Assembly (NCBI RefSeq): GCF_044324785.1
Contig: NZ_CP172127.1
Source: Escherichia coli
Lineage (GTDB): Bacteria; Pseudomonadota; Gammaproteobacteria; Enterobacterales; Enterobacteriaceae
DNA length: 64,000 nucleotides
Direction: 5' to 3' (one strand)
Shown one piece after another: positions 4,797 through 5,962 of the stretch. Numbering within the stretch: position 1 is the stretch's first letter; the number at the start of each line of letters is the position of its first letter. Under the pieces are notes generated by a model, which was not told the origin of the DNA, searched no databases, and saw only the letters and a program-made list of their open reading frames with translations. The position numbers and the translations under genes were made by a program.

Positions 4797-5962
4797 GCGA
4801 GATGAGTTATCTGGAAAAATTGCTGGATGGAGTTAAGGTTGAGTGGAAAACACTAGGGAAAGTGCTTAAACGAACTAAAGGCACAAAAATAACCGCTGGG
4901 CAGATGAAAGCTCTTCACAAAGATAATGCGCCGCTTAAAATTTTTGCAGGAGGAAAAACAGTAGCCTTTGTTGACTTTAAAGATATACCAGAGAAAGATA
5001 TTAATAGAGAGCCATCGATTATTGTTAAATCCAGAGGTATTATCGAATTCGAGTATTACGATAAACCATTCTCTCACAAAAATGAGATGTGGTCATATCA
5101 CTCAAATAATGATGCGATAAGCATAAAGTATATTTATTACTTCCTAAAAATAAATGAAGGATATTTCCAGAAAATTGGGGGTAAAATGCAAATGCCACAA
5201 ATTGCAACTCCTGATACAGATAAGTTTGAAGTTCCAATCCCTTGCCCGGATAATCCGGAAAAATCCCTTGCCATCCAGTCTGAAATCGTTCGGATTCTGG
5301 ACAAATTTACTACACTTACCGCTGAGCTTACCGCTGAGCTTACCGCTGAGCTTAACATGCGTAAAAAACAGTACAATTACTATCGCGACCAGTTGTTGAG
5401 TTTTAAAGAGGGTGAGGTTGAGTGGAAGACTTTGGGGGAAGTGGCTCAGTTTAAGCGAGGAACGGCAATTACCCAAAAACAGACAACACCAGGTGAAATA
5501 CCAGTAGTTGCCAATGGACCAATTCCTACTTATTTTCATAGCGAGAGCAACAGACAAGGTGAAACAATCGTTATAGCCAGATCTGGTGCCTATGCAGGAT
5601 ATGTCAGTTTCTGGAATCAGCCAATATTTTTAACCGATGCCTTTAGTGTTCATTCCGACTTAAAAATTGTAAAACCAAAGTTTATTTACCACGTGCTACA
5701 AAATAAACAAGAGCACATCCATGCAATGAAAAAAGGTGCGGGTGTGCCTCATGTCCGAGTTAAAGAGTTTGAAACCTATGATATACCTATACCTCCTATC
5801 ACCGAACAAGAGCGTATTGTTTCTATACTCGATAAATTCGACACCCTGACCAACTCCATCACCGAAGGTCTTCCGCGTGAAATCGAGTTGCGCCAGAAAC
5901 AATACGAGTACTATCGTGATTTACTGTTCAGTTTCCCAAAACCTGAAACTCTCAGTAATTAA
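4793..5962 (+). CDS. hsdS: Type I specificity subunit HsdS (type IC-like) with central TAEL x3 repeat
   Basis: 389 aa; two variable target-recognition regions flank a conserved central region containing [13 protein letters not shown], and a related conserved C-terminal repeat ([14 protein letters not shown] versus [14 protein letters not shown]), as in EcoR124-type HsdS. Confidence 0.9.
5318..5353 (+). repeat. Three perfect tandem copies of a 12-bp unit (ACCGCTGAGCTT) inside hsdS, encoding [12 protein letters not shown]
   Basis: Read directly: accgctgagctt x3, in frame with hsdS. Confidence 0.95.

Follow-up and report, generated by a model that had tools for sequence, protein, structure and literature searches.

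The closest described relatives of the system analysed here are EcoR124I and EcoR124II (formerly EcoR124/3). EcoR124I carries two TAEL units in its HsdS specificity subunit and recognises GAA(N6)RTCG, and EcoR124II, with three units, recognises GAA(N7)RTCG; the change in copy number has been attributed to unequal crossing-over, and one extra TAEL corresponds to just over one helical turn (PMC3874165). Two units set the methylated adenines 7 bp apart, and three units set them 8 bp apart (PMC12707154 Table 1). Similarly, EcoDXXI (TCA(N7)RTTC) and EcoPrrI (CCA(N7)RTGC) are natural type IC systems with three TAEL units, 8 bp between the methylated adenines and a single N7 specificity (PMC3874165, PMC12707154). 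Engineered hybrids with an altered number of units changed specificity exactly as predicted (PMC3874165 Table 2), and removal of one TAEL from EcoR124II changed the set of T5-like phages that it restricted (PMC10644984). EcoR124I-delta, a two-unit truncation derivative, recognises GAA(N7)TTC and keeps the 7-bp adenine distance. The number of repeats determines how far apart the methylated adenines lie, whereas N as written in a recognition site varies with the length of the half-sites as well. The experiments behind this spacer rule used EcoR124, EcoDXXI and their hybrids, all with other pairs of recognition domains than the one described below. The original prediction made on this DNA had invoked the same rule (two TAEL units giving N6 and three giving N7, with copy number changing by unequal crossing-over), which is how PMC3874165 and PMC12707154 Table 1 present it.

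The hsdM-hsdS-hsdR operon and its recognition domains

The window, i.e. the whole 64-kb stretch of Escherichia coli DNA that was analysed, carries hsdM, hsdS and hsdR between positions 3240 and 9200. The three genes are co-oriented and follow the arrangement expected for the family. The hsdM stop and the hsdS start overlap by 4 bp, a gap of 121 bp separates hsdS from hsdR, and none of the three genes is truncated or frameshifted. The features of the operon are as follows.

3240..4796, plus strand: hsdM, type IC methyltransferase subunit, 518 aa (EcoR124 HsdM match, TIGR00497)
4793..5962, plus strand: hsdS, specificity subunit, 389 aa (EcoR124 HsdS alignment, PADLOC)
4847..5233, plus strand: TRD1, recognition domain for the 5′ half-site, aa 19-147 (differs from EcoR124I TRD1)
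5255..5395, plus strand: CR1, central conserved helix carrying the repeat, aa 155-201 (AlphaFold2)
5318..5353, plus strand: three TAEL units, aa 176-187, perfect 12-bp units (repeated tract 5315..5354)
5435..5797, plus strand: TRD2, recognition domain for the 3′ half-site, aa 215-335 (differs from EcoR124I TRD2)
5798..5926, plus strand: CR2, C-terminal conserved helix, aa 336-378 (AlphaFold2; near-identical to the EcoR124 C-terminal region)
6084..9200, plus strand: hsdR, restriction/translocase subunit, 1038 aa (full-length EcoR124 HsdR match)

HsdM shared 513 of its 518 residues with EcoR124 HsdM (PDB 7bst_D, 1153 bits) and scored 651 bits against the NCBIfam model TIGR00497 (hsdM), whose cutoff is 243. 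HsdR matched EcoR124 HsdR (2w00_A) over all 1038 residues (2253 bits), the printed alignment showing about 97% identity; the Pfam domain EcoR124_C is annotated on the HsdR encoded by a near-identical locus (L004), which is the same protein as that of the window. HsdS, identified by PADLOC as Specificity_I (409 bits), showed the layout of a conserved N-terminus, TRD1, central helix, TRD2 and C-terminal helix with the type IC conserved sequences. Its residues 1-18, 146-214 and 334-389 aligned near-identically with EcoR124 HsdS (7bst_A), the only exception in the central region being the repeat, present as two TAEL units in the PDB entry and as three in the window. In contrast, both recognition domains differed from those of EcoR124, and TRD1 had no useful similarity to EcoR124I TRD1. 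Judged by these alignments, 3240..9200 is an intact type IC system built on an EcoR124 scaffold with a different pair of recognition domains, and the assignment of hsdS to type IC in the original prediction was borne out by all three subunits. EcoR124II is thus like the window in gene order, in HsdM (99%), in HsdR (about 97%), in the near-identical conserved regions of HsdS and in its three TAEL units, identical to those of the window in their 12-bp DNA sequence and 3′ flank, and unlike it in both recognition domains.

Since both domains differ from those of EcoR124, the half-sites of the window enzyme would not be GAA and RTCG. A PDB sequence search with HsdS returned EcoR124 (conserved regions) and weak matches such as MG438, with no domain of assigned specificity among them, and the literature on E. 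coli type IC methylomes held nothing that tied TRD1 or TRD2 of the window to a motif. TRD1 was common to 93 of the 120 best HsdS homologues at an identity of at least 80%; 85 of them shared TRD1 only and 7 shared both domains. In three other E. coli HsdS proteins (P0095, P0097 and P0101, residues about 214-343), this domain sits at the C-terminal TRD2 position and is 98-100% identical in amino acids, indicating that recognition domains move between both positions in this family. An identical TRD2 was found in the hsdS genes of E. coli YPE3 and PSJ-12, paired with another TRD1 and with five or four units.

EcoR124 is plasmid-borne, whereas the window system is chromosomal and lies in the island at leuX. 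Positions 40-60 kb of the window are E. coli core chromosome (valS, pepA, yjgR), 97% identical to K-12, and the defence island extends to the left of the tRNA gene. The leuX site corresponds to hotspot 37, where 4% of occupants include a type IC system (PMC12707154). The other features of the island are listed here; the Pfam labels of the AbiE and CbtA/CbeA/RadC/DUF932 genes were taken from L004.

2070..2953 and 10995..11878: direct repeats of 884 bp, 95.5% identical, each a DUF4942 gene, bracketing hsdMSR and the AbiEi/AbiEii module
9620..10567, minus strand: AbiEii toxin gene (PADLOC, 424 bits)
10560..11024: ORF partner upstream of AbiEii
11973..14001: CbtA/CbeA/RadC/DUF932 block, typical of CP4-like island remnants
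20060..26349: second type I restriction-modification operon, with hsdR (20060..23476), hsdM (23540..25174) and hsdS (25171..26349)
27098..30889, minus strand: Dsr1 (1670 bits, cutoff 1400)
31039..32004: PDC-S08
32082..33002, minus strand: phosphorothioated-DNA-binding restriction endonuclease
33173..34519, minus strand: integrase
34642..34726: leuX, tRNA-Leu, anticodon CAA, adjoining the integrase gene

PADLOC scored the second operon as REase_I (910 bits), MTase_I (637 bits) and Specificity_I (532 bits). It is PRK11448/EcoAI-like, not type IC, and unrelated to the EcoR124-type operon. In L005, another E. coli contig with the same operon, the left DUF4942 copy was 98.2% identical to the right copy of the window and showed 24 clustered differences from its left copy, a resemblance which suggests gene conversion between the DUF4942 copies.

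The TAEL array and its variation in nature

The array at 5318..5353 (plus strand) consists of three copies of ACCGCTGAGCTT with zero mismatches and encodes three TAEL units, residues 176-187 of HsdS. It is in frame within the hsdS ORF (4793..5962, plus strand, 389 codons). Tandem Repeats Finder reported the tract as 5315..5354, with a period of 12, 3.3 copies, 100% matches and a score of 80, the extra 0.3 copy being the preceding CTT (Leu) codon and one A after the array. The three perfect tandem copies announced by the original prediction are therefore found both by direct reading and by the program. We estimate that chance would produce three perfect tandem copies of a 12-bp unit in 64 kb about 64,000 x 4^-24 times, roughly 2e-10, so the array is no chance feature. 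The unit together with its 3′ flank (accgctgagcttaacatgcg) matches exactly a primer designed on EcoR124II hsdS (PMC10644984). In the AlphaFold2 model of HsdS (mean pLDDT 85.8), an unbroken helix (residues 155-201) runs through the repeat and would pair with the C-terminal helix (336-378).

The best protein homologue of the window HsdS, P0001, is 99% identical, has 385 aa with two TAEL units and occurs on 145 contigs. Three E. coli contigs encoding it (L004, L005 and L006) carry the same leuX-island operon, equally intact, with two units. Specifically, L006 (GCA_045905035.1) and the window were identical over 11,755 bp save one 12-bp unit, and L004 (GCA_020389665.1) differed by 2 SNPs and one 12-bp unit over 13,962 bp. 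In L005, every difference apart from the 12-bp unit fell in the upstream DUF4942 gene. Inside the operon, the 12-bp unit is the sole difference between the window and any of the three. These two-unit sisters relate to the window allele as EcoR124I does to EcoR124II, one 12-bp unit apart; the EcoR124 alleles came to light on a plasmid in laboratory work, whereas the present pair comes from separately sequenced natural isolates. What had been predicted as a potential for repeat-number variation is thus realised in nature, as a polymorphism of two versus three units on an otherwise identical background.

The domain pair of the window recurs in a second lineage, with about 91% protein identity. 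Among its complete genomes, four have the three-unit length and six the two-unit length, and L001 (three units) and L002 (two units) showed one 12-bp unit and no other difference in 11,554 bp. The pair of domains was also present, with three units, on a Klebsiella variicola plasmid (L003). The two lineages encode the unit with different synonymous codons, the window lineage as ACCGCTGAGCTT and the L001/L002 lineage as ACAGCAGAGCTT, and within each array of either lineage all units are identical. This lineage-specific spelling, combined with identity within the array, points to concerted evolution, with continuing gain and loss of units. In L001 (7162..8406), L002 (7150..8394) and L003 (7160..8359), a gene for an AAA family ATPase (about 400-415 aa) lies between hsdS and hsdR, in the position that the anticodon nuclease gene prrC has in the EcoPrrI (prr) locus. 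The window, unlike these loci, has no gene there, only the 121-bp gap.

The exact three-unit HsdS of the window was absent from a collection of 15 billion proteins, which is weak evidence of rarity, as the collection is not exhaustive and also lacks the L001 HsdS, present in complete RefSeq genomes. Its hsdS allele was absent from the complete E. coli genomes of the RefSeq set, where the closest full-length matches were 93-94% identical, and a search of metagenome contigs with a lineage-specific pattern of variable gap gave no matches for the two- or three-unit form. Because the nearest relatives all carry two units, we infer that the change was most simply a recent gain: on this comparison, the three-unit allele most likely arose from the widespread two-unit allele by addition of one 12-bp unit. 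The third unit would have been gained by slipped-strand mispairing or by unequal crossing-over, and in a tract of 40 bp the former is at least as plausible as RecA-dependent crossing-over.

Another possibility is frequent flipping of cells between the two-unit and three-unit states in a single culture, in the manner of simple-sequence-repeat phasevarions. The TAEL tract has been named as a precedent for the phase-variable repeats of type I hsdS genes, and the two have in common an hsdS-internal repeat whose length could alter specificity (PMC7383803). A perfect tandem tract, at least two changes between two and three units, each unaccompanied by any other substitution over more than 11 kb, and the turnover implied by units that are homogeneous within an array yet differ between lineages (ACCGCTGAGCTT versus ACAGCAGAGCTT) would all fit such a switch. 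However, the phase-variable tracts are long runs of 1-5 bp units with on/off switching at a high rate (PMC7383803), whereas the window tract holds only three in-frame 12-bp units and appears to change rarely. Furthermore, all but one of the 85 homologues listed as sharing TRD1 only have the two-unit length, indicating that copy number is stable within allele lineages. With the two-unit form of the allele on 145 contigs and the three-unit form seen in the window only, the copy number seems to change rarely and not by fast phase variation, and we consider the fast switch very unlikely.

Repeat states across type IC alleles

To place the window allele among others, the number of units was inferred from the length of the ungapped match to a 156-bp probe, and metagenome contigs were counted directly. 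The counts were as follows.

E. coli complete-genome records, evenly spaced sample: two units, 29; three units, 25; four units, 1; five units, 2-3; six units, 0
Plasmid records, evenly spaced sample: two units, 32; three units, 24; four, five and six units, 0
First 120 metagenome contigs with at least two perfect units: two units, 63; three units, 53; four units, 1; five units, 1; six units, 2

The list of the 120 best homologues (117 two-unit, 3 three-unit) was rejected as a census of copy number, being biased and dominated by TRD1-sharing alleles. Two- and three-unit alleles were about equally common overall (roughly 55:43 in the DNA samples), the three-unit length accounting for about 43% of the sampled E. 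coli and plasmid alleles. Three-unit hsdS genes were full length, by a length-based test of intactness, in 45 of the 46 assessable cases on metagenome contigs. Given these frequencies and the intactness of the genes, three units is a common, maintained state. That the third unit of the window is a sequencing or assembly artefact is scarcely credible, as such arrays are common in complete genomes and plasmids and the whole 40-bp tract lies below any modern read or assembly k-mer.

The same data bear on whether the third unit could be a neutral or slightly harmful passenger in a silent or inactive system, with no functional consequence. The window allele is a singleton, type IC operons of E. coli are often hit by IS elements, and a promoter and terminator scan of 2900..9700 gave 13 promoter sites versus 12.2 expected, no better than shuffled sequence; these observations would fit a passenger. 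However, the three genes of the window are full length and their products share 97-99% of residues with the EcoR124 proteins, which are biochemically active; the sister operons with two units are just as intact, and three-unit hsdS genes elsewhere are almost always complete, as counted above. On balance, a passenger is unlikely, and a functional three-unit enzyme remains our preferred reading.

Arrays of four to six units were rare and mostly found in IS-disrupted genes. The following examples were collected.

E. coli YPE3 (L007), 1561..1620: five units; hsdS full length, hsdM annotated as partial and without its N-terminus
PSJ-12 (L008), 1561..1608: four units; hsdS partial, with IS5 immediately upstream
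JA0266 (L009), 1561..1620: five units; hsdS partial, with ISEc45 immediately downstream
L017, 661..708: four units; hsdS intact, with a TRD1 that we take to be EcoDXXI-like
L047, 4796..4867, minus strand: six units; hsdS without its N-terminus, next to an ORF that we read as an IS5-like transposase; no hsdM found
L124, from 3784, plus strand: six units; hsdS ends early, 16 nt from the contig end
L125, from 7, plus strand: five units; hsdS cut by the contig end, not assessable

These long arrays come from E. coli genomes and from gut or environmental metagenomes, and the truncated ones usually lie beside an IS element. Truncation of hsdS affected 4 of the 6 assessable long arrays and 9 of the 108 with two or three units (Fisher p = 0.0014), a comparison that is a lead only, as the sample is small, two sampling frames are mixed and L007 and L008 are related. 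Tentatively, selection may hold TAEL arrays at two or three units: the window would then capture a live switch from two to three in an otherwise unchanged operon, raising an instant restriction barrier between sister clones, and four to six units would survive almost only in operons killed by IS elements. We put this forward as a possibility that we rather doubt. If true, over-long spacers might make the enzyme promiscuous and self-damaging, so that inactivation is selected; alternatively, arrays might drift longer only after function has been lost.

The predicted spacer and its consequences

How the third unit would act can be proposed from the EcoR124 model. The central helix would serve as a ruler between the two recognition domains; four extra residues would lengthen it and move the methylated adenines from 7 bp to 8 bp apart. 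Since the HsdM and the HsdS helices of the window are 99% identical to those of EcoR124, the spacer rule should transfer to this enzyme. By that analogy, the window enzyme should have an 8-bp separation between its methylated adenines, usually written N7. It would target half1-N(x+1)-half2 and its two-unit sisters half1-N(x)-half2, x+1 being most likely 7.

A three-unit enzyme might instead be relaxed rather than shifted, accepting both spacer lengths. In 1991, Gubler and Bickle reportedly found that lengthening the spacer helix rendered a type IC enzyme promiscuous, an effect reported for four units, not three. Also in favour of relaxation, the register of the coiled coil with an extra turn in one helix only is called unclear in PMC3874165. 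Against it, EcoR124II, EcoDXXI and EcoPrrI, all with three units, each have a single N7 specificity, and the engineered hybrids shifted to the predicted sites. A relaxed specificity is in our view highly improbable, and a shifted spacer is retained. Altogether, we consider it likely that the leuX island of this chromosome carries an intact type IC operon whose three-unit allele derives recently from a two-unit one, with a predicted spacer one bp longer; from its kinship with EcoR124, we infer that the enzyme is active and its spacer changed.

The mechanism itself is already textbook; what is new is natural copy-number variation on this exact background. The window strain and the two-unit GCA_045905035.1 are near-isogenic in this region, and a comparison of the two would put the spacer rule to a clean test with a new pair of domains. 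Given the other type I operon of the island, any methylome of this strain should contain a minimum of two bipartite motifs, and its interpretation must separate them. Moreover, transfer of specificity between HsdS homologues must take copy number into account besides the identity of the recognition domains. Two E. coli lineages each hold pairs of isolates whose type IC operons differ by one TAEL unit only. If the spacer rule holds, such sister clones would mark and cut different sites and restrict each other's DNA, and a slip of 12 bp would constitute an immediate barrier to gene exchange.
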